In this document: positions 5,899 through 62,856 of the stretch, one piece after another
Numbering within the stretch: the stretch's first letter is position 1
Layout of the letters: each line of letters begins with the position of its first letter
Origin: Sporopachydermia quercuum
Taxonomy: Eukaryota
Assembly (NCBI GenBank): GCA_001599295.1
Contig: BCGN01000005.1
Span: 124,001 to 188,000 of the forward strand
Length of the DNA: 64,000 bases
Direction: 5' to 3'
The notes under the pieces: model-generated
The model's database searches: none
Told to the model about the DNA's origin: nothing
Seen by the model: only the letters and a program-made list of their open reading frames with translations
Translations under genes and position numbers: made by a program

Positions 5899-7258
5899 AT
5901 GTTGAGAAATTTATTCAGACCCATTGCTGTGCAAAGAGGTATTCCTCAAGCTGCTGTCAGAGGCATGGCCACTGGAAAGTCTGATGTAAGTTAAGATTAG
6001 ATGAACTTTTGCTGTTTGAGATGAAGTACTTTGAAATTAAGTAATTGGTAATTTTTACGATAGATTGATTGTTATTGGGAATTTTAGTTTAATTCTAAAC
6101 AATAATTATTAGGTCCTTTACAATATTATCAATATTATGCTGTCAACTCTCTAACTAACATTATAGATTGTATCAATTTCATTGAATCCTAACTCCTTTG
6201 AAGGATATGAATTGGAAGATACCCCAGAGCTGGATTTTGAAATGGAGAGGTCTGAATTGTTGGAAATGTACAAGCAAATGAATATTGTTCGCAGAATGGA
6301 GATGGCAGCAGATGCGTTATATAAAGCTAAGCTTATTAGAGGTTTCTGCCATTTATCAGTTGGCCAAGAAGCTGTTGCTGTTGGGATGGAACACGCTATT
6401 TCCTCTTCTGATACTATTATTACTTCGTACAGATGTCACGGTTTTGCATACTTGAGAGGAGCTACTGTTGCTGAAGTTTTGGGAGAATTGTTAGGTCGAA
6501 GAAAAGGTGTTTCATACGGTAAAGGTGGCTCTATGCATATGTTTGCTCCTGGTTTCTACGGAGGAAATGGTATTGTTGGTGCCCAAGTTCCTCTAGGAAC
6601 TGGATTGTCCTTTGCTCATAAGTATAAGAATGAAGAGGCTTGTACTTTTACCTTATATGGTGATGGTGCTTCCAATCAAGGTCAAGTGTTTGAAAGTTAC
6701 AACATGGCCAAATTATGGAATTTACCATGTATTTTTGCTTGTGAAAACAATAAGTATGGTATGGGTACTGCAGCATCTAGATCATCTGCTTTAACTGAAT
6801 ACTATAAGAGAGGTCAATACATCCCAGGTCTCAAGATCAATGGTATGGATATTTTGGCTTGTTACCAAGGTTCCAAGTTTGCGAAGGACTGGTGTGCATC
6901 AGGTAAGGGACCATTAGTTATTGAATACGAGACATACAGATATGGTGGACATTCCATGTCTGATCCTGGTACCACTTACAGAACCAGAGCCGAAATTCAA
7001 CACATGAGATCTAGAAATGATCCTATTGCAGGTTTAAAGCATTATTTACTTGATCTTAATGTTGCTACTGAAGAAGAATTGACCAAAACTGAAAAGGAAG
7101 CTCGTGCCTTTGTTGATAAGGAAAGCAAGGAAGCCCAAAGTATGCCTCCACCAGAAGCCAAGATGGATATCTTGTTCGAAGACGTTTATGTTCCTGGTTC
7201 TGAAATCCCTGTTCTTAGAGGAAGAATCTCTGATGATTCATGGTACTTCAACAAATAG
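5899..7258 (+). CDS. PDA1: Pyruvate dehydrogenase E1 alpha subunit; exons 5899-5985 and 6167-7258
   Basis: Exon 1 encodes a mitochondrial-presequence-like MLRNLFRPIAVQRGIPQAAVRGMATGKSD. The intron 5986-6166 (GTAAGT...AACTAAC...TAG) is phase 0 and in frame with the 6182 ORF. Motifs IRGFCHL, GKGGSMH, YGDGASNQGQ and TYRYGGHSMSDPG are present. Confidence 0.97.
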
Positions 7259-24888: not shown

Positions 24889-26075
24889 ATGGCTAGTTAC
24901 ATAGGGAAAACAATCTCATTGATCTCTACCAAAGGCATCCGCTATGTTGGTACTTTGGATGATATCAATGGAGAAAGTGCCACAGTATCGCTTAGAAATG
25001 TGCGATCTATGGGTTCTGAGGGCAGAATTGGAGACCCTACAAAGGAAATCCCTGCTGGTAACCAGGTTTTCGAATATGTCGTGTTCAGAGGNTCAGATGT
25101 TCAAGATTTAGATGTTTTAGATGAGGCTCCTACTGTACCAGCACAAATTGCTGACGATCCAGCTATCATTCAGGTATGTTAATTTTGTCTTGTTGCGGTA
25201 TAATTCTTTTGAATATTCACTGAATGATGAAAAATTTTCGGATGTAAATTTGTTTCACCTGAAAGCGCAAAAACCATGTGGATATCTTCCGTTGCCTTCC
25301 TTCTGATCCTTTGAATCTATTCATTAGTCTGATATTGATATCACTAGCAACTTGCTGTATTGTATTGTTACTAACTGTTTGATAGACTACCGCAAATGTG
25401 CCTGCTCCCANTCAAACTCCTGTTTCCGTTCCCGCACCCGTACCAGCCGCCGCCGGGCCTGTTCCAGCTCAACCACAACAATATACCCAACAAACTACCA
25501 TTTTCAACCCACCAATTGCTCCACAACCGATTCCTGATCAAGCTCAATTTACGAAACCTTCTTCAGAACCGAGATCTGTCTATACAGTTGAAAAGAAACA
25601 CCCNCATCCTCCCAAACCTCCAAAGGTCGTGGTACCTGATACTGAATTTGATTTTGATGCAAGTAACGCCAAATTCCATAAAGAAGAAGTCAAGTTAGAA
25701 GTCACTGGAGAAGCTCAAGATACTGGGGAAGAGAAGCAGGAGGTTGAAATTCCTCCCCCTGAAGAGTTTTACAACAAAAAGTCATCTTTCTTCGACAACA
25801 TTTCGAGTACTATCAAGGATAGAGCTGAAGGTGTTGAAACTGGAGGTAACATGAGATGGGGCGAAGAAAAGAAATTGAATATTGAAACTTTTGGTCAAGA
25901 AAGTACCAGAAACAATTTCAACAACAGAGGCAGGCATTCGAGAGGTAGAAGGGGTGGTTATAGAGGCAATCGTGGAAATGGTAATAGAGGTGGCTATCGT
26001 CGTTACAACAACTATAATAACAATAATAATAACNGCTTCACAAATAGTAACAATCAAAATAATGAAGCTATATAG
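24889..26075 (+). CDS. SCD6: Lsm14/Scd6 translational repressor (Lsm domain, FDF, FFD, TFG, RGG tail); exons 24889-25173 and 25386-26075
   Basis: YIGKTISLIS..GIRYVGTL, SMGSEGR, FDFDASNAKF, SSFFDNIS and NIETFG. The intron is GTATGT...TACTAAC...TAG, phase 0. Confidence 0.95.
25220..25308 (+). ncRNA. SNR52: Intronic box C/D snoRNA, snR52-like, predicted to guide 18S rRNA Am420 (S. cerevisiae numbering)
   Basis: C box ATGATGA at 25224-25230, D' CTGA at 25259-25262, C'-like ATGTGGA at 25276-25282 and D box CTGA at 25303-25306. The guide GTTGCCTTCCTT pairs with 18S AAGGAAGGCAGC, placing A420 at D+5. A flanking stem GAATATTCA/TGAATCTATTC is present. Confidence 0.82.
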
Positions 26076-45676: not shown

Positions 45677-45791
45677 GGTTGTTTGGCCGAGTGGTCTAAG
45701 GCGTCCGACTCAAGATGAAAATCTTAGGTGCTGTTAAGTGCCGAGCATTCGGATCTCGTAAGAGGCGAGAGTTCGAATCTCTCAGCAATCA
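45677..45791 (+). tRNA. tRNA-Leu(CAA) with a 33-nt intron (45715-45747)
   Basis: Acceptor stem GGTTGTT/AGCAATC, A-box TGGCCGAGTGG, anticodon stem TCCGA/TCGGA with CAA at 45711-45713, long variable arm, T-loop GTTCGAATC and a downstream T-run. Confidence 0.96.
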
Positions 45792-52710: not shown

Positions 52711-54327
52711 TCAAGCTGCAGCTTTAGCGAAGTCTATGGAATAACTAGACTCTGTTGATGATTCCTTGTCAACTGATTTTGACAGTTTTGCCCAGGATTT
52801 GGAATTCCATGCTTTGACTCCAGACCCAAACATCTCATCAATTTCCTCCAAAGAAAGACTCTTTGTTTCCAAAACAAAGAAGTAGCTGAAAAAGAAAGCA
52901 ACAGCACAGAATCCTGCGAAGACAAACCCGAAATAGAAATGAATCTTCTCAGAGATAAAAGGTGTGCAGAAAGATATTAGGAATGCAAATAACCAGTTAG
53001 ATCCTTGAGCAATTGACATACCTTTGGAACGAACTCTGAGAGGAAACACTTCAGCGAGAAGAACATAACTTATTGGTGCGTACATGGTTGCAAACGATAC
53101 GATGAATAAACAGGCAAATACAAGCATTATGATACCCATTGTCTTATTAGGCGTAGAATTGGTTCCATCTGGATATAAACCAATACCCCCAACAGCTGAG
53201 AATATGAACAGGCAAATAAACATTGAAGCAGTGCCATAGAACAATGGTTTCCTTCTTCCGAACTTCTCTATGAAGTACGATGTGGGGATAGTACTTAGGA
53301 AGTTGATAGCAGATAAGATAATTGATGTGATGTATGAATCCTCTATGCCCACTGACTGGAAAACTGNATTTCCATAATAGAAGAAGTAGTTGATACCGAC
53401 TAACTGCTGAAGGGATTGAATTCCCACACCGATGAATAATCTAAAGAGGATTCTTGGTTTNCCTGTTACTAATTCAAGCCACGAGGTATTTCCCTCGGCC
53501 TGTTCGTTCAGTAGTTGCATTTCCAACTCTTTTATCTCTTCTTCCGCTTGTTCAGATTCTACAGACATGTTATTTGACTTGGCAATTGATTTCATAGCTT
53601 CTTCTTTTCTATTCTTCGATAGCAGATACCGAGGTGATTCCGGAACTAGAGATATAGCCAGTATTAGGATTCCTGCCCACAGAAAACATAAGCCCAATGG
53701 AACTCTCCATTGAGCTGAACTCTCATTGATTTGTTTGGAGCCAAAGTTCACACAATTACCAAAAAGGATAGCCATTGTGATATTGAGATTATAACCTGAT
53801 ACGAGAGCACCTCTCAAATGTTTTGGTGCTGTCTCTGATATGAACATTGGTGCCATAATAGATATACCACCAACGCCCAAGCCGGAAATGACTCTTCCTA
53901 TGAAATATTGGTACCATCTATGAAATGAAGATATTTGAATGGTTATTCCTGTGATATAGATCGTAATGACAATGAACAGGCCGATCTTTCGTCCGTAGAT
54001 ATCGCAATATTTACCAAAAAGTATACCTCCAAGAAGAGCACCAATATTGAAGATTGAGACTATTAATCCAACTCGTATCGTTGATAATGAGTAAGCATTT
54101 GTTTGAATATCAAACGTTCCAAATCTTTGCTTGAAATCATTCATATTAATGAAACCAGAGATAGTACCAGTATCCCAACCATATATAAATCCACCGAATG
54201 CTATCAGCAGACATAGTATAATAACCCTAGTGTGTTTTCTTAGAGATGCCGTTGAGTGAAAAGCATGTTGTTGTATGATGATCTCTGACTGCTTGGGGTT
54301 TTCATTACTTTCAAGTTGTTTAGTCAT
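52711..54327 (-). CDS. MFS sugar porter, HXT/GAL2-like hexose transporter
   Basis: AFGGFIYGWDTGTISGF, WYQYFIGRVISGLGVG, PMFISETAPKHLRG, WRVPLGLCF, PESPRYL, QQLVGINYFFYYG, FGRRK and ETKSLSLEEIDEM. Confidence 0.93.
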   Translation of the reverse strand: MTKQLESNENPKQSEIIIQQHAFHSTASLRKHTRVIILCLLIAFGGFIYGWDTGTISGFINMNDFKQRFGTFDIQTNAYSLSTIRVGLIVSIFNIGALLGGILFGKYCDIYGRKIGLFIVITIYITGITIQISSFHRWYQYFIGRVISGLGVGGISIMAPMFISETAPKHLRGALVSGYNLNITMAILFGNCVNFGSKQINESSAQWRVPLGLCFLWAGILILAISLVPESPRYLLSKNRKEEAMKSIAKSNNMSVESEQAEEEIKELEMQLLNEQAEGNTSWLELVTXKPRILFRLFIGVGIQSLQQLVGINYFFYYGNXVFQSVGIEDSYITSIILSAINFLSTIPTSYFIEKFGRRKPLFYGTASMFICLFIFSAVGGIGLYPDGTNSTPNKTMGIIMLVFACLFIVSFATMYAPISYVLLAEVFPLRVRSKGMSIAQGSNWLFAFLISFCTPFISEKIHFYFGFVFAGFCAVAFFFSYFFVLETKSLSLEEIDEMFGSGVKAWNSKSWAKLSKSVDKESSTESSYSIDFAKAAA

Positions 54328-56400
54328 TATGAGAAAAAATTGATAATCGACGAGTATTCAAGCTTTAACAAGTACCAATTGCTGTGTATTCATCCTACTG
54401 AATGCACGAATAACATTTTCATTATCTCTCTCAGTACTAATAGAAAGACTACGATATCAATTTCATAAATGTAATTTATTTATTCTTTATTTATTTATAT
54501 ATTCAAAAAGTTCAGAGCTATATATATAAATTAAGAGAAGTTCAGAGCTTTTCTCTTATTTATATTCATAATTATATATTCACACTAATATTACAACCTA
54601 TTGAACATTCCTACAGATAATAAGAAACAGAAATCGGTTTCATTCCCGTTTAGGGATCTTTTCCTCTTTTGAACTGTTCAGGTGAATGAATTTATCACCA
54701 ATCTAAGAACATGCAATTTTAGCTTATAAATTAACTATGGTTCGGCAAAAAAGGCTACCTCGATTTGATTACAATAACGATTTAATTCTATTTTTGTATT
54801 GCATCTTATCAGCAAGCATATCGTAGCTAGCAAGTAGTTGGCATTCATTCAACATTGTATGCCCATAATCTGTTTCTGGGAAGGTCTTCTGTTTCTACGA
54901 TGCAATGNAGTTTGTTGTAATAAGACAAATTCAATTTGGAAACAAAGGTTTAGAAAATTTCAGCTGTTGAGCATTTGTAATAATTACAACACCCCAAAAA
55001 TAATGAAATAATAGTTGAATATCTTCTAATCAATATATGTCACCCTTCAACCATCAATCATTTTTTGACTCACCCCATTGCACTATTGTAATTGACATCA
55101 TATTGACCGTTGAATTTCTGTGTTAGGAAATTGACCCAGGAAGATTGGCTCATCGGCGCAAACTTTAATGCCCGATCCAGTAGTTGGAAAAGTCACTAGT
55201 CATGCACTTCTTCGCTAAAGATGCATGTAGATATATTTAGCGTGGGGGTACTATTGGAAGGTAGAAATGAAACATGTAATGGTTGATGATTAGAGGGTTC
55301 ATCTGATAGCAGAATATCGAGGAGAGTATTAAGATGTGGAAAATAGATGAAAAAGAATGAAGTTCGTGTAATATTTTTGGGTTTGGGAATCTGCATTATT
55401 AAGCATGCGAAACTAAAAAGGTTACAGGTTATAGGCGTTCAAGTTGAAATATAGTTACGGAATATGAGTCAATCTTCGATTAACTATTAACTAGATACCA
55501 ATTGCCGAGAAGGATCAAGTGATAATAATATATTATATTGGTGGGAAAAGTAAAATAAAAAGTTAAGTTTGTTGAAAGAAGAATATGATGTACTGTTATG
55601 TGGAATTTCACCTTTATGTTGTAGGCTTCAGTTCGGATGGTAAAAAGGTTGCAGGGAAACATGTGTGCCTAATTTATGACTACCAGGTTTATATGAATTT
55701 ACGAATTAACGAAATAATCTGTGTATATTGTTTTTATATGCATTAGAGGTATCTCAGGATTGTCTCAAACTAGCTGTAGAAGGTAACCGAGCTTTTTTAT
55801 CCTAACAAGAAAGANAAAAAAATAGTAGCATCAGCATGAGTTATTCGCGACAAAATTGTAGGCATGCTAGCCAAATTTCTAACTTGTTATCCAGGCAGCC
55901 AACTCAACCGGCAGCCAATTGAGCTGGATGATAATTGGATAGTTGATTTAACACAGTAAGAACTCTCTAAGAAAACCAGTGCTCAAAAATAAAATGAACG
56001 ATGAGTTGGGCAAGCAGAGTAAATGAAGTATAGGAAGGAAATGGTACAGGAAAAGGGGTAGAACTNGGATTTTCTTGCTGCTAGGAGACCATGAGAATGA
56101 GACCTGCTTTAGTATTTACTNATAGAACCCAATTCCTGCGTTTCTTCATGCGGACGTACAACCCAAGGGCAAGTGAGATAAAAAAGAAAAGAATTACAGT
56201 ATATAGGACACCGGTCTTTGTTTCATTATTGCAGAGGCTCTAAGGGGTATAATAATTGAATATATATATATAATCTAAGGATATAGGTGACAGGATAAAT
56301 CAGCATTTTTAATACTTCCAGAGTTTTGATTCACTGATTATCGCTTATGCAAACTTTGCTGAGAACTGAATTAGATGAAAAATAAATTTTTTGTTTCAGT

Positions 56401-56934
56401 TTAGATGACAATTCTCTCCGCCATGATATCTCTCTTGACATAAGTAGTGTTGGAGATACATTGAGAATACCAGTCATTGGAATAAACACAGAAAGAGCCA
56501 GCTTCACAACAGGTAGGGCCTCCGAAGTTGATACCACCACATTGTCCGTAAAGAGGAGAGCAGACCTCTGGGACTGGCTCACCTGGTGCAGGGGGTGCAG
56601 GTCCTTCAGTTCCAGCAACAGGTAAACATTGGGAGAACCAGTCGTTAGACTTAACGCAGCTGGTACCAGCGTGGCAGCAAGTAGGGCCACTGTAACCAAT
56701 ACCACCACATTGGCCGTAGATAGGGGCACATTTCTTGTCTTCTTCGCTGTCGAAAATAAGACACTGAGAGTAGAAAGCATTGCTGTAAACACATTTACTT
56801 CCATATTTACAACACGTTGTACCCTGGAAATCTTGACCACCGCATTGTCCGTACCAATCACTACAAGAAGCAGCAAGGGAAACCTCAACTGCAACTAAAA
56901 AAGTTGAAATTAAAACAAGAGGATTGACAAACAT
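56401..56934 (-). CDS. Secreted non-catalytic protein with three tandem fungal cellulose-binding modules (CBM1)
   Basis: Hydrophobic signal peptide (about aa 1-22) followed by three repeats of C..(W/I/L)YGQCGG..(F/Y).G.TCC..G..C..SN.(F/W)(Y/F)SQC, with a Pro-rich linker. Start context ACAATG; intronless. Confidence 0.93.
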
Positions 56935-59900
56935 TGTGATTGTTGTTATTTACTACGTGATAGTAGATGATCGATTGTGTAGTACGCCTGAAACTGCTAC
57001 ATAAAGAAGTGAAAACGAAGAAAGAAAAACAAACCAGAATTAAAGGAAACAAATTCCAGAATATCAACAAACTAACAAAAACAATGAAAACTGAGGAAAG
57101 TCGTCAATAAATAGTGAGTGAGAAATAATCATGAATGTCTACAACCAAGAGATAGCTACCTATTCAAACTTAAATTCTGTTCTCATACAGATCCCCAGTT
57201 AACTTTAAGTAAGTTAAGGTTAAGTTAAGGTTTCAAAAAGACTAACTCAGGCTAATTGTTGTAAAGTTGAATTTAAGGTTTTATGTTTTTTCCTATGGAG
57301 GATATTCAAATTCTACTCTAGACAGAGAATAGTTGTAGAGAGACATAAGAACAGAAAGTATTTATTTATGAAATAATTATTTAGAACCGGAAGCTATAAC
57401 TTTTGAAACTCATTGTAAAGATGGGGGAGAGATGAACTGCTTTCTGCCAGTATAAGACATTATTTTTTTATTCACGGCCGGTATGTGTAATTATTCCGAT
57501 TATCGTGAGTAAAGTTATGATTCTTGGGTATAAGAGTAACAGAGTGGACTTTGAAGAAGCATATTGTTATATATAGTGAAAAGATAAATAAAAGTTCGAA
57601 AAATAAAGTTAGACATTGGCACCACCAGATAGATATATTCTCAGTTTCAATTGTATGAACAGTCCGATGATTCTAATTAACGAGTTCTTTATGTGTATCA
57701 AAGATTTACTACAAATCTCACAGGTATCCTATTCAGTTGCACTTAATTATGAACATCTATGATTATACGGAGCAATTTACATATTTCTGCTTCAACTAGG
57801 AATTTAATACCTGGTTCTATGGTTTACCTCTTCTTTGATCGTTTCACGCTATTTTCTTCACTGCATGGGGGAATAAATATGTATACATACGCTCATACTC
57901 AGTGCCCAGTGCCCATATGGAAACTAAAAGAGATTGAACCTACTGTGCCCGAACAACAATGAATGGCCAATATACATAACATGAAAATAGGGACTCGATG
58001 CATAAAAACGAGAACTTATCTTTACTACTATCATCAGTAATAACATTCTTACCATAATAAGTAATTTCTCCTGCCGCATGCGCCAGACACGACTTGAATA
58101 CAGGAGGTATGGCTGAGGATGAATTACATCATGATTTAGAAATAGAAATCAATATACACACATATATATGAGTTGGTAAATCAGTACCAAATCAGTGATA
58201 TCATCAATAGAAAGCATTTGTAAACCCTGTAATATTTCCGATATCTTGAAAATTGATGCTACATTCAAACAGTTTATTTAAGGTTTACTTGCATGGTGGA
58301 GCACAACCCCATAAGCGAGCGTTTTACACCAAATTAACCGTCCTGCGCTGAAATCCCACTAAAGCAGAAGTTATAATAGGTGTAAACCTAGTTAAACAAG
58401 AAAGGAGACTGATCCTGTCAAAGGTAAAAGCATGGTTTATTTTATCTTCCTTTTTTATTTCCATTTTCATTTTCAAGTATGTGCTATTGATTTCGTAATT
58501 GGAGTAAGAATAATTGGCGCAAGGAAAATGACTCGGCAATTGTAGTCTCTTGTCAATTGATTGATCTGATAGTTTTTATTGATAGGTTCTGAAGGAGATA
58601 ACTTCTTAAAGGATCTTCGAATGCTTGAAATTCCAGTCTTGCAGGATACTGCTAACAGATCCTGTGCTGTTTCCTTTAGATACATACCCATAGATAGCTT
58701 CATAGAATTCGGGACTATTTAGAATTGTTTCCCCTGTTGAGCCATTTATTATTTTAGTTTCAAGTCAGCCATTATATTGAACAGGAAATTAAGAGATTAG
58801 TTAATTNTAAAAAATAAATCTGTGAATAATAAAGCATCGCGCTAAGTTATTTTAAAGAACTCAGTTCTGTAAATGTTTCTAAAAAGTATTGAATGCTCGG
58901 TCCAACCTGCCTTGGATATATAATTTCTAGAATAAAGTTTGACACCTGGCGCTAAATACTAAATATATAAACTCAATTGAAAACGTTAATCAAACGCAGA
59001 AACTCTATAACGAAAAACACCAGGACGTCCGATTTTTTGAAGTTAAAACTATCAGATGCCTAAGTCGCGTTTTGTTCTTGAAACTCCTTTACACGTTATC
59101 TTTTATTTCTTTGGTGCAATGAGTAATGGTGTGTCTCTACTATTTAAGATACAGGATTTGGTAGGCCTTTCGTTAGTTCATGTGAGTTGAAGATTGCCGA
59201 CAGCCTTGATTGGGGATGAGGGCTTTACCTTTATTTCTTCTTAGATAGGGAATAAACTAATTGAATACTGGAACATGATAATACCCCTGCGGGGTTTTTT
59301 ATCAAGTGATATTGATGGTTATTTTAGTTTATCTCCTTAGCTAATTTTTCTGATGTAAATAAGTGAAGCCAACTTGGCTTAACTAACTCCGTATAGAAGT
59401 TTGAGGAGACTCTCATGCCTTCCAGTCAACTACTCAGGGTTAGTTTCTTATTTGCTATGAATAATCCTCAAGTTGATCTCTTCGTCTATAGATGCACTTT
59501 ATGACACATAAACGTTACATAAATTTTATTTTGCTACCATTCTTACTATAGTAATTTCAAAAGCACACGCATCTATCAATGTTATCTCTCGTTTGAGACG
59601 TAGCATTTCTTCTCTATCATCTACAGATAAACCACAAAGTGATTATAGATCTTCCATTTTAAGCTATTTTTATTTGTAGTAAACTTGTCTGCTCTGCCGG
59701 CTAAGTATCAGAATTAACAAAGTACTATAACCCACAACTTTATAATGTAAGCCTATCAAAGCAAAGAGTAGCATGAGATGAGTGATCCATAACCTTCATT
59801 AACTATCAGAAAAGTATAAACTTTATCATACTATCCAAAAACTACCTCCTATAAACCAACTGATTATACAGTGATCATGTAACATAATCATGATGAACCA

Positions 59901-62856
59901 TAAGACTGTAGAAAAGTATGGTCTGGCCAGGACTTCTTCTATAAACTCCTTGCAATCCTCCTGTCTGTTCCCAATAAAACTTCGCGTAGTTAACTGTCAC
60001 CAAAACAAATAAACGTTTTTAGTTTTCAATTGAGTTCTGACTGGAAAATTTATCAATTAAACAAAAACTTTACCTTGAGTTAAACCCGAAAAGTGATCCA
60101 GATCAGGAAATTTTAATTATTATTTAAACAAAACGGTTACTTAATCTGTACTGTAAATTCTAAACCTCTATAACCTTTCATTAAGTTCGTATCATCATCT
60201 TGTGTGATTCAATCTATTACGTACTCAACTGTTAGTATACTCGTACTATAAAATTACTATAAGTGTCAAGATGAATAAGTTCTATTAGTAACGGATTGCA
60301 ATTTTCGTAATTGATCAATCAGTCGAAAGCTAAAGAGAGCCGATGACATACAGATGGATCAGTAATGATAATCTAATAAAGTGAAGTACATTTCGACAGC
60401 TCCTAGGAATCATGAAAGATTAAAATTCTGTTATGTCTGTTAGTAAGCGAACATACCGATGATGAAACATCGAACTCTTTGACTTAGTTCTTACAAAATC
60501 CAGCTTGAGCTGTTTGCTTTTTGACAACGCGTCACTGCATGAACAATGGTCTTGGATTTACAGTCAGTTCAAGTAAACTTCAATGATGAAACAAGTGTAA
60601 TATGCAGTGAAACGTTCTACCGTGTTTCACAAGTTCCTGCTGCACTTTCTAGGAGTTCGGACTAGCTTTGGCTCTTTCTCTGCAATAGGAGAATTTTAAA
60701 GTTAGCCTTTCTACTTTCCTAATTTTCACTGCTTNTTGATACGTGAATATTAAGCCTTTGTATTTAAGTTTCGAAAGATTGATTGATTTACTTGAGACTT
60801 ATATTTTNTTTTCCTATAGGTAAAAACACTTTGACTATCAGCCCCCTGAAGGAAACAATTTTGGTCCACTAGTGAATACATCAACACTCGACCCTCTGCA
60901 AACTTGTGAAATATTCTTTGAACTCTCCTCCCTCTATTATTCTGAGCAGCTCCCCGATTAAAATGTTAATGAAGAAAATTCTAGTATTTCTTTTACCCTC
61001 TTTTTTATTTTTAGTTTTTAGGAGAAGCACAGTGGAACGACGAATCTGACATGTTCAACGGAATGTTTGACATTCTTACATCTGTACGATTACTGGTAAT
61101 ATGCAATATATGGAAAAGAAAAAGCTCTTCCATAAAGTAGGTATTGAATCTATGTTATCTTGTTATGTATTGGATCATACCAACTGTACCCCATTGGCTT
61201 CAGTAGTAGATTACCACAGAAAAACAAGGAAACCATTTGATTGGAACACACAGCTAGTGCTACTTAATAGGAATTATTCTCATTCTATTTGTTATATGCA
61301 AGCTCCTTATTTCAAAGCAATCAATGTGCCATACTTACATTAAAAGGTACCTAAAGAAATGATGGCAACTTTTCCAACCAGTTTCTTTGCCCCATAGCTC
61401 TCGAGTTACTGAAGTGAATATAAATAAAATCAAGTAACTATTGGGTTTTCGTAGTTTTATTGATCAGATTATTGTGTATGTTTTGGTTTTAATAGAGCTG
61501 GTAAACAAGTCAATTAATTTATCTTTACTTCATATTTTTGGAAATAACTTGAAGCCAAACGTTTTTAACTTGGAGTGACCTGGAATGTTTTCCGCTGAAT
61601 GCAACAACAGAAGAACAATGCTGTATCTGTTTACATCTTCTTAAATCTAACTAACTTTCTTTCACTCTTAGCGAAATAAACTGAAAGAATGTAAATGGAG
61701 ACAGTGAATTCACAAGTCCCAAGATTAATATATATGAACCTAACTCTGCTCATCAAGCAAGGATGAATACTCGAATGTCGCCAAGGTTTATACTAAGCGA
61801 CCAAAAATCATATCTTTCCTTGTGAAGAAATCTCGATCAACAAATTCCGAAATGGATCAAAAGTTTTATAAGGTACATTTAGAATGAAATTTAAAAACAT
61901 TCTATAAATGGTCAGTAATTGAATAGCGACAACTGATCTCTAGTGTGAATAGCAGTTAGATAAGTGATAATTAATCTTCACATAACTAAAAAAAAAAGTC
62001 AGTGTACCAATCAAAAAATGATTCCTTCTTTCTCATAATAATTATGAATCAATGTCTAGCTCATCGAAGATGCACCGTATCCAGGAAGGAATCTAGTAAT
62101 CATTGCACCATCAATCTCAGCAAAATTGTCATGAACCACTATGATTCACAGGAATCTTAAAAAGATGTAGGATAAAGTTAAAGTTAAAGTGAAGTTTGTT
62201 GTCACAATTAGCCTAACAATTTGATAAACCTTATTCATAATACTTACGTTAAACACGAATTAAAGTTGGAGAAGTGTAATAAGGGTCTTCACTAATTTGA
62301 TCCTGCTCGTAAGTCTTACAAAACAACTTGTTATGTAACGAGGTTTTCGATGTCTCGGTCCATCGATAAATAAATAAATAGAGGATTCAGGTAAAAAAGG
62401 AGGACATACGATTCAGGAGCCGTTTTTTAATACTCTACTAAAAGTAAATGATTAGGAACCGAAAGTGAAATCGATGAAAAATATAGCTAACNCAGTTGAA
62501 TCTATCAGTAGGATAAACCAACCATCACAGCGAACACTTTATAGTCCACAAGCTTACTAATGAATTTCGAATAGAAATATTCTCACAACCTCAACAACAA
62601 GTCAGAACTGATATAGGGCATGTGGCAAATCCATCTATACTCAAGCAATGCCAATCATTTACGATAAACATCAACATGTAGAATTACCACTTATCTCTAT
62701 TACGTTACAAAAGTTTCCGCTATATAACATAAAGCACTTGCTTGTATTCTTAAAAACAAGAGATTCCAAATAACAAAACTATGAGTCGAGGTGCTGTAAA
62801 CAACGAGCTTATACCCAATCGGAACAATTACATATGTATTGAATTTATCACCATTT

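Follow-up and report, generated by a model that had tools for sequence, protein, structure and literature searches.

A stand-alone, probably secreted triple-CBM1 protein in the budding yeast Sporopachydermia quercuum

Gene layout and genomic setting

The DNA analyzed here (hereafter the window) is a stretch of 64,000 nucleotides from the budding yeast Sporopachydermia quercuum. On its minus strand, the ORF listing and translation revealed an ATG-to-stop ORF of 177 codons plus TAA at positions 56401-56934, which, together with its Pfam matches, corresponds to a complete coding sequence for a predicted secreted protein with three CBM1 modules. Reading of the sequence around the start showed an in-frame TAA five codons 5' of the ATG and an A at position -3.

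All parts of the protein are encoded on the minus strand. Residues 1-23 (56866-56934) form a predicted signal peptide, which is hydrophobic, contains a predicted helix at residues 6-14, and has small residues at -3/-1 (S-L-A/A or A-A-S/C, the stroke marking the cut), so that cleavage would be expected after A21 or S23. They are followed by module 1 (residues 24-59; 56758-56865), an acidic linker of 9 residues (linker 1, residues 60-68; 56731-56757), module 2 (residues 69-104; 56623-56730), a Pro-rich linker of 20 residues (linker 2, residues 105-124; 56563-56622), module 3 (residues 125-160; 56455-56562), and a C-terminal tail of 17 residues (residues 161-177; 56404-56454). The module boundaries come from Pfam and a regular-expression dissection (for module 2 also from an alignment to the PDB entry 1cbh), and the linkers and tail were read from the translation. 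The tail is short and charged, contains an N162-T-T sequon and a K167-R168 dibasic site ahead of the 9 last residues, and is disordered in the predicted structure. Neither a Ser/Thr stalk nor a hydrophobic C-terminal GPI signal was seen when the 177-aa protein was read directly; it therefore lacks both hallmarks of a GPI-anchored yeast adhesin. A previous interpretation of this DNA from its letters and ORFs (the sequence-only reading) had described the signal peptide, both linkers, the NTT sequon, the KR site before the last 9 residues, and the absence of a GPI signal and a Ser/Thr stalk, and our examination of the translation agrees with it in each of these points, the signal peptide remaining a prediction. 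At the DNA level, the three modules appear as three 99-nt direct repeats with 64-72% identity.

Other genes in the window encode BRR2, a PDA1-type E1 alpha subunit, a HIS6-type protein, RPB3, a mitochondrial carrier, and a TRM5/TYW2-type methyltransferase. The nearest ones are a steroid-5-alpha-reductase-type gene upstream and, directly downstream and on the same strand as the CBM1 gene, a gene for an MFS sugar transporter of 538 aa (52711-54327, minus strand; Sugar_tr, E 9.3e-146). The CBM1 gene stands alone in about 8.5 kb (54328-56400 and 56935-62856), with no other recognizable gene. The upstream part of this region (56935-62856, no strand assigned), in which the Pfam scan of flanking ORFs gave no recognizable gene, measures 5.9 kb, which is unusually long for a yeast promoter; it may represent a long promoter.

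The CBM1 gene is native to this yeast. The PDA1 fragment of the window is 74-82% identical to the 120 matches listed, and most of the named ones belong to Saccharomycotina. GC content is uniform along the window (0.33-0.40) and reaches 0.45 in the CBM1 gene, whose GC3 is 0.37 versus 0.26-0.36 in 17 neighboring ORFs and whose codon use is host-like. In addition, contigs of three public sequencing runs from two studies, which were compared with the window over 56122-60734, carry the gene with no differing letter. The depth of the contig bearing it (33.6, 101.1, and 24.7 in the three runs) is equal to that of the adjoining contig (34.5, 100.3, and 23.7), and one run contig of 14,417 nt spans the gene and continues beyond the lower end of the compared region. 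Since the runs may include the source of the window itself, at most one of the two studies counts as independent confirmation. A contaminant or chimeric join, for which the sequence-only reading had proposed a check of contig coverage, is very unlikely, as the depth of the gene matches that of its neighbor in every run.

In the upstream stretch, 36 nt at 60149-60184 are covered far more deeply than their surroundings, by a factor of roughly 22-38 in each of the three runs (1283 versus 33.6 in run X1). They match the end of a high-depth contig of 569-575 nt, the rest of which does not fit the window, and are probably the edge of a dispersed repeat (a solo LTR or similar) located 3.2 kb upstream of the CBM1 gene. 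The window also contains 57 N positions, nearly all of them isolated single letters, which are spread across genes and spacers. In one run the contig bearing the CBM1 gene begins beside the N at 55815, which suggests that the Ns are polymorphic or ambiguous sites and not gaps.

The CBM1 gene has no CTG codon, so its translation is independent of yeast CUG reassignment, and an alteration of the protein by such a reassignment is ruled out. The host itself appears to read CTG as Leu: in the helicase region of the BRR2 fragment, where 6 of the 17 CTG codons were examined, five align to Leu and one to Phe of Chaetomium Brr2. In a PDA1 tree of 38 rows built with the fragment at 6242-7258 (plus strand), the window has a long branch (0.73), which attaches inside relative to Dipodascales but outside all the other groups sampled (Pichiales, Serinales, Phaffomycetales, Saccharomycetales, Ascoidea, and Babjeviella). 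From this single gene, the host may represent a sparsely sampled lineage.

CBM1 modules, binding face, and cysteine pattern

Pfam assigned the protein to CBM_1 (PF00734) in three stretches, with an E value of 5.7e-35 and a score of 119.3 bits against the curated cut-off of 20.6, in accordance with the three intact modules proposed earlier. With E values up to 1 admitted for the ORF, CBM_1 was the sole family, and PAN/Apple domains and PF02015 were absent. The regular-expression dissection found six Cys in every module, all 18 being kept. Four of the six are the canonical CBM1 cysteines (Cel7A C8, C19, C25, and C35), which are present in each 36-residue module. The other two, an N-terminal Cys and a Cys adjoining C19 that creates the CC pair, occur in three of three modules, just as the sequence-only reading had noticed, and are predicted to form a third disulfide.

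In a phmmer search against the PDB, module 2 aligned without gaps to the CBM of Trichoderma reesei Cel7A (1cbh) with an E value of 8e-10. The first conserved Cys occupies position 8 in every module, which allows direct transfer of the Cel7A numbering. The positions of Cel7A Y5, Y31, and Y32 are occupied by Y28/F54/Y55 in module 1, Y73/W99/F100 in module 2, and Y129/W155/Y156 in module 3, which bears out the aromatic binding face (Y/F/Y, Y/W/F, and Y/W/Y) that had been suggested for each module; equivalents of Q7, N29, and Q34 are likewise kept in all three. The planar aromatics Y5, Y31, and Y32, together with the polar residues Q7 and N29, constitute the cellulose-binding face of CBM1 (PMC3532174).

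An AlphaFold2 model, built on an alignment of 12 rows, reached a mean pLDDT of 75.5, with block means of 77-92 for the modules and values below 50 in the linkers and tail (in the Pro-rich linker over residues 110-117 and 119-121). Three strands were predicted per module. The closest PDB fold to the predicted model was again 1cbh (TM score normalized to the target 0.92, rmsd 0.6 Å over 35 columns, Foldseek E 1.1e-3), the modest E value being due to the shortness of the domain. The model thus matches the wedge-shaped irregular three-stranded antiparallel sheet of CBM1.

Further examination of the ORF and its surroundings was directed at catalytic domains. Continuation of the reading frame past the stop codon gave a string of stops and no catalytic sequence. 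We also compared the whole window by tblastn with 244 CBM1-bearing proteins, among them enzymes of the GH5, GH6, GH7, GH10, GH18, GH45, and AA9 families; apart from the gene itself, the lowest E value was 0.008, which carries no significance with that many queries, and the GH45 queries from Mucor, Hyaloraphidium, Umbelopsis, and Rotaria revealed no GH45 relic in the window. Pfam gave no match at E values up to 0.01 in 13 flanking stop-to-stop ORFs of at least 55 aa, and the 2.1 kb downstream and the 5.9 kb upstream of the gene contain no relic of a catalytic domain. As frame reading, tblastn, and Pfam were all negative, the protein consists of CBM1 modules alone, and the missing catalytic domain stated in the sequence-only reading is borne out. 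As CBM1 is its only domain and occurs more than once, the protein has the composition of the class described as "multi-CBM1" (PMC3532174). Domain content, gene setting, and binding faces therefore all agree with the earlier view of a stand-alone, probably secreted triple-CBM1 protein in a budding yeast.

The six-Cys pattern had also been labeled as Mucorales-like, and this label was not supported. Among the matching proteins, 94 of the 358 modules found have six Cys, and such modules are spread over 58 of 239 proteins. Their carriers among fungal enzymes include GH6 proteins of Sordariomycetes, GH5 proteins of Chaetothyriales and of chytrids (Nowakowskiella, Blyttiomyces, and Irineochytrium), and GH45 proteins of Hyaloraphidium, Mucor, and Umbelopsis; further carriers are a GH45 of the rotifer Rotaria and proteins of Aphanomyces (oomycete), Symbiodinium (dinoflagellate), Serendipita, and Sporobolomyces. 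CBM1 modules are known with two or three disulfide bonds (PMC3370244), and the variant with three is the T. reesei Cel6A type (PMC7176825, PMC3370244). Considering the many lineages that contain it and the published three-disulfide variant, the six-Cys pattern is a long-known form of the module and not a signature of Mucorales.

Relatives and age of the modules

A phmmer search of 1.84 billion cluster representatives yielded 1834 matches with E values up to 1e-3, 384 up to 1e-10, and 28 up to 1e-30. In a separate word-indexed search, 210 of 400 candidates of similar length and 720 of 1251 longer ones matched at E values up to 1e-3. The best alignments over the full array are about 40-46% identical, and no closer relative was found. 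An exact look-up in a collection of 15 billion proteins gave no entry for the CBM1 protein, and three neighboring proteins are likewise absent from it. The ESM Atlas returned a generic CBM1 cluster (score 0.75) with no taxa.

Identity to the window protein across the whole array is 38-46% for P0375/P0496, P0003, and P0004/P0122, which may form one family with it, judging from these alignments; P0375, P0004, and P0003 lie at 40-44%. P0375 has four six-Cys modules, whereas P0004 and P0122 have three six-Cys modules and a Ser/Thr-rich tail. Another set (P0005-P0007 and P0124) clusters with or resembles the N-termini of the GH5 enzymes P0123 and P0256 of Exophiala and Capronia. Only one named protein of Saccharomycotina is present among the 240 rows listed, namely WICPIJ_009443 of Wickerhamomyces pijperi (P0008), which is 221 aa long, lacks a catalytic domain, and has three CBM1 modules of the four-Cys type along with Ser/Thr-rich spacers; this is consistent with the rarity of CBM1 in Saccharomycotina that the sequence-only reading had assumed. 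Among the best 150 representatives, 46 start with Met and are at most 260 aa long, and 17 of these 46 carry at least three modules and leave no space for a catalytic domain, which indicates that a stand-alone multi-CBM1 architecture is recurrent in sequence space.

The K167-R168 site was considered, together with the short tail behind it, as a possible conserved processing site and was rejected: VKR is present in P0375, and KR is missing from P0496, its mate in the 90% cluster, as well as from P0003 and P0004. Given this variation among the closest relatives, no weight was placed on the site.

Within the protein, the modules share 55-69% nucleotide identity. Inter-module dS values are 1.8 and 3.7, the third pair being not computable, which means saturation, and dN ranges from 0.22 to 0.49; the resulting dN/dS values of 0.06 and 0.22 are rough, as each module provides 36 codons. 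On this sequence evidence, the modules are old duplicates kept under purifying selection, which argues against a decaying remnant as well as against a recent arrival.

Proposed role and comparison with known systems

We propose, with a probability of about 0.6, that the gene encodes a small secreted non-catalytic protein that would serve as a multivalent cellulose lectin or cross-linker, holding or coating plant fibre. After cleavage of the signal peptide, the protein would be released from the cell, as it has no visible wall anchor. In every module the three aromatic residues, arranged in a planar strip, would then lie flat against the hydrophobic face of crystalline cellulose, as they do in the CBM1 modules of Cel7A and Cel6A. 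A single CBM1 binds cellulose weakly, with a KD of 1-10 uM (PMC7176825), and three in tandem would for this reason be expected to give avidity; on linkers of 9 and 20 residues, such a trivalent protein could bridge separate fibrils or surfaces. It would act in the manner of the oomycete multi-CBM1 proteins that are free of catalytic domains, and not as part of a cellulase. Since cellulose does not support the growth of most yeasts (PMC8254220), a non-degradative role such as attachment, coating, or cross-linking would be the most economical one. Given the absence of a visible wall anchor, a direct adhesin role would need a second contact with the cell.

From its sequence, the protein could have another ligand: CBM1 modules may also bind chitin, which is the main alternative to the cellulose role. 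The protein would then be a lectin directed at chitin or the fungal wall, either that of the producer or that of competitors, and would organize or mask that wall or provide the docking part for an antifungal activity. CBM families can bind chitin (PMC3532174), the oomycete protein CBEL alters deposition of its producer's own wall (PMC8518581), and crystalline cellulose is not a substrate for most yeasts (PMC8254220); moreover, the protein is small, Cys-rich, and predicted to be secreted, with a dibasic site. However, the residues of the cellulose-binding face are all canonical, neither a toxin-like nor a chitinase partner adjoins the gene, and conservation of the KR site does not extend to the nearest relatives, which leaves this alternative unlikely.

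A different possibility is that the protein is what is left of a former cellulase (CBM1x3-GH5 or CBM1xn-GH45), namely its N-terminal CBM1 array with little or no function. Over about 160 residues it is 42-43% identical to the N-termini of the GH5 enzymes P0123 and P0256, each with three six-Cys modules, which is in line with such a descent, but the window retains no catalytic relic downstream of the gene or elsewhere, the key residues are intact and the modules are under purifying selection, and similar short multi-CBM1 proteins are common (the 17 of 46 short proteins mentioned above); we therefore judge a cellulase remnant quite improbable. Horizontal acquisition from Mucoromycota or another non-yeast donor, ancient enough for the gene to have taken on host composition, could account for the patchy presence in budding yeasts, from which a single named protein stands among the 240 rows listed, and for the similarity of single modules to those of other proteins: modules 2 and 3 are up to 75% identical to a chytrid module and a module of a further protein, versus 69% to each other. 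By score, however, the best match of every module is another module of the window protein, tied with a foreign module in the case of module 1, and the composition of the gene is host-like. A tree of 105 modules over 36 columns, with 6 of 101 branches supported, contains no supported branch that holds a window module and places the modules of the Mucor and Umbelopsis GH45 enzymes elsewhere; with so few supported branches, no donor was drawn. CBM1 is also found in both Dikarya phyla and in early-diverging fungi, which makes vertical descent with losses equally possible. Nothing in the sequence indicates a recent transfer (host-like codons, saturated inter-module dS, and no donor above about 46% identity), and even an ancient one appears improbable. 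Finally, a contaminant contig, a chimeric join, or a spurious ORF might be suspected from the 57 single N positions and from the absence of the exact protein from the 15-billion-protein collection. The neighboring proteins are equally missing from that collection, though, and the equal depth in three runs of two studies with no difference, the 14,417-nt contig passing the gene, the uniform window GC, and the Pfam E value make this explanation extremely improbable.

For the cellulose-lectin reading, the closest functional models are found in oomycetes. CBM1 proteins of fungi mostly have one module attached to a catalytic domain, whereas multi-CBM1 proteins with no catalytic domain are reported from oomycetes, such as PcCBP3 of Phytophthora capsici (two tandem CBM1) and CBEL of P. 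parasitica, the latter of which mediates adhesion to cellulosic substrates (PMC8518581, PMC3532174). The window protein resembles them in its signal peptide (predicted here), several CBM1 modules, short low-complexity linkers, and the lack of a catalytic domain. It differs from CBEL in the absence of PAN/Apple domains (Pfam at E values up to 1) and from the oomycete proteins in general by its three six-Cys modules, theirs being of the four-Cys type. The oomycete proteins belong to another kingdom, the likeness is one of architecture, and the hosts are a yeast on one side and plant pathogens on the other.

With the CBM1 of T. reesei Cel6A (CBHII), the window protein shares the extra Cys pair and, in modules 2 and 3, a Trp-containing aromatic triad (PMC7176825); Cel6A, in contrast, carries a single module tethered to a GH6 catalytic domain instead of three stand-alone ones. 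The GH5 endoglucanases of Chaetothyriales (Exophiala mesophila P0123 and Capronia coronata P0256) also have three consecutive six-Cys modules after a signal peptide but continue into a GH5 domain (PF00150) at the C-terminus, for which the window protein has no counterpart. GH45 enzymes of the Mucor/Rhizopus type (such as Mucor lusitanicus P0264, 50% identical over half of the query) have N-terminal tandem six-Cys modules; they differ by the GH45 domain, by an insertion before the last aromatic pair, and by modules that group apart in the tree with 6 of 101 branches supported. Similar layouts are those of WICPIJ_009443, P0375, P0496, P0003, P0004, and P0122, all short secreted proteins with 3-4 CBM1 modules and no catalytic domain. 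Among them, P0375 is distinguished from the window protein by a fourth module, P0004 and P0122 by the Ser/Thr-rich tail, and WICPIJ_009443 by modules of the four-Cys type with long spacers rich in Ser/Thr.

Plant-cell-wall machinery is generally considered sparse in budding yeasts. Our literature search found no paper on budding-yeast CBM1 proteins, and the term CBM1 is absent from the main text of a yeast CAZyme survey (PMC8254220). Some apparent hits were discarded: "CBM1" in PMC11542307 is a strain code and not the module, and PMC12122572 and a zymocin preprint matched through CBM18 and CBM19 instead of CBM1. CBM1 itself, the variant with three disulfides, and stand-alone arrays of several modules are already known, the last being a layout familiar from water moulds and some fungi but seldom seen in yeasts; what is new is this member and its host group. 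Neither a new kind of module nor a new mechanism is revealed. The sequence suggests that some yeast lineages physically contact cellulose or chitin surfaces and do not degrade them, which is relevant to how yeasts live in wood, in insect guts, and on plant surfaces. For biotechnology, the protein would offer a naturally yeast-expressed multivalent cellulose tag, its binding being predicted.

A more specific scenario, which we put forward tentatively and consider unlikely in its full form, is that this lineage kept or anciently acquired a soluble trivalent cellulose lectin, a cellulase-free and unanchored glue that would join cells or matrix to plant fibre or to the chitin of foreign fungi, as a functional convergence with oomycete CBEL. 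If true, it would be the first functional non-catalytic CBM1 protein in Saccharomycotina, and the gene-free region of 5.9 kb upstream would be a complex promoter like those of yeast surface-protein genes.

Non-coding RNA genes were also searched for in the window. ARAGORN detected no tRNA in the whole window nor in the segment 45500-46000, and Rfam assigned a tRNA of 115 nt, probably containing an intron, to 45677-45791 (plus strand) and a C/D snoRNA of the snR52/Z13 family to 25215-25315 (plus strand).
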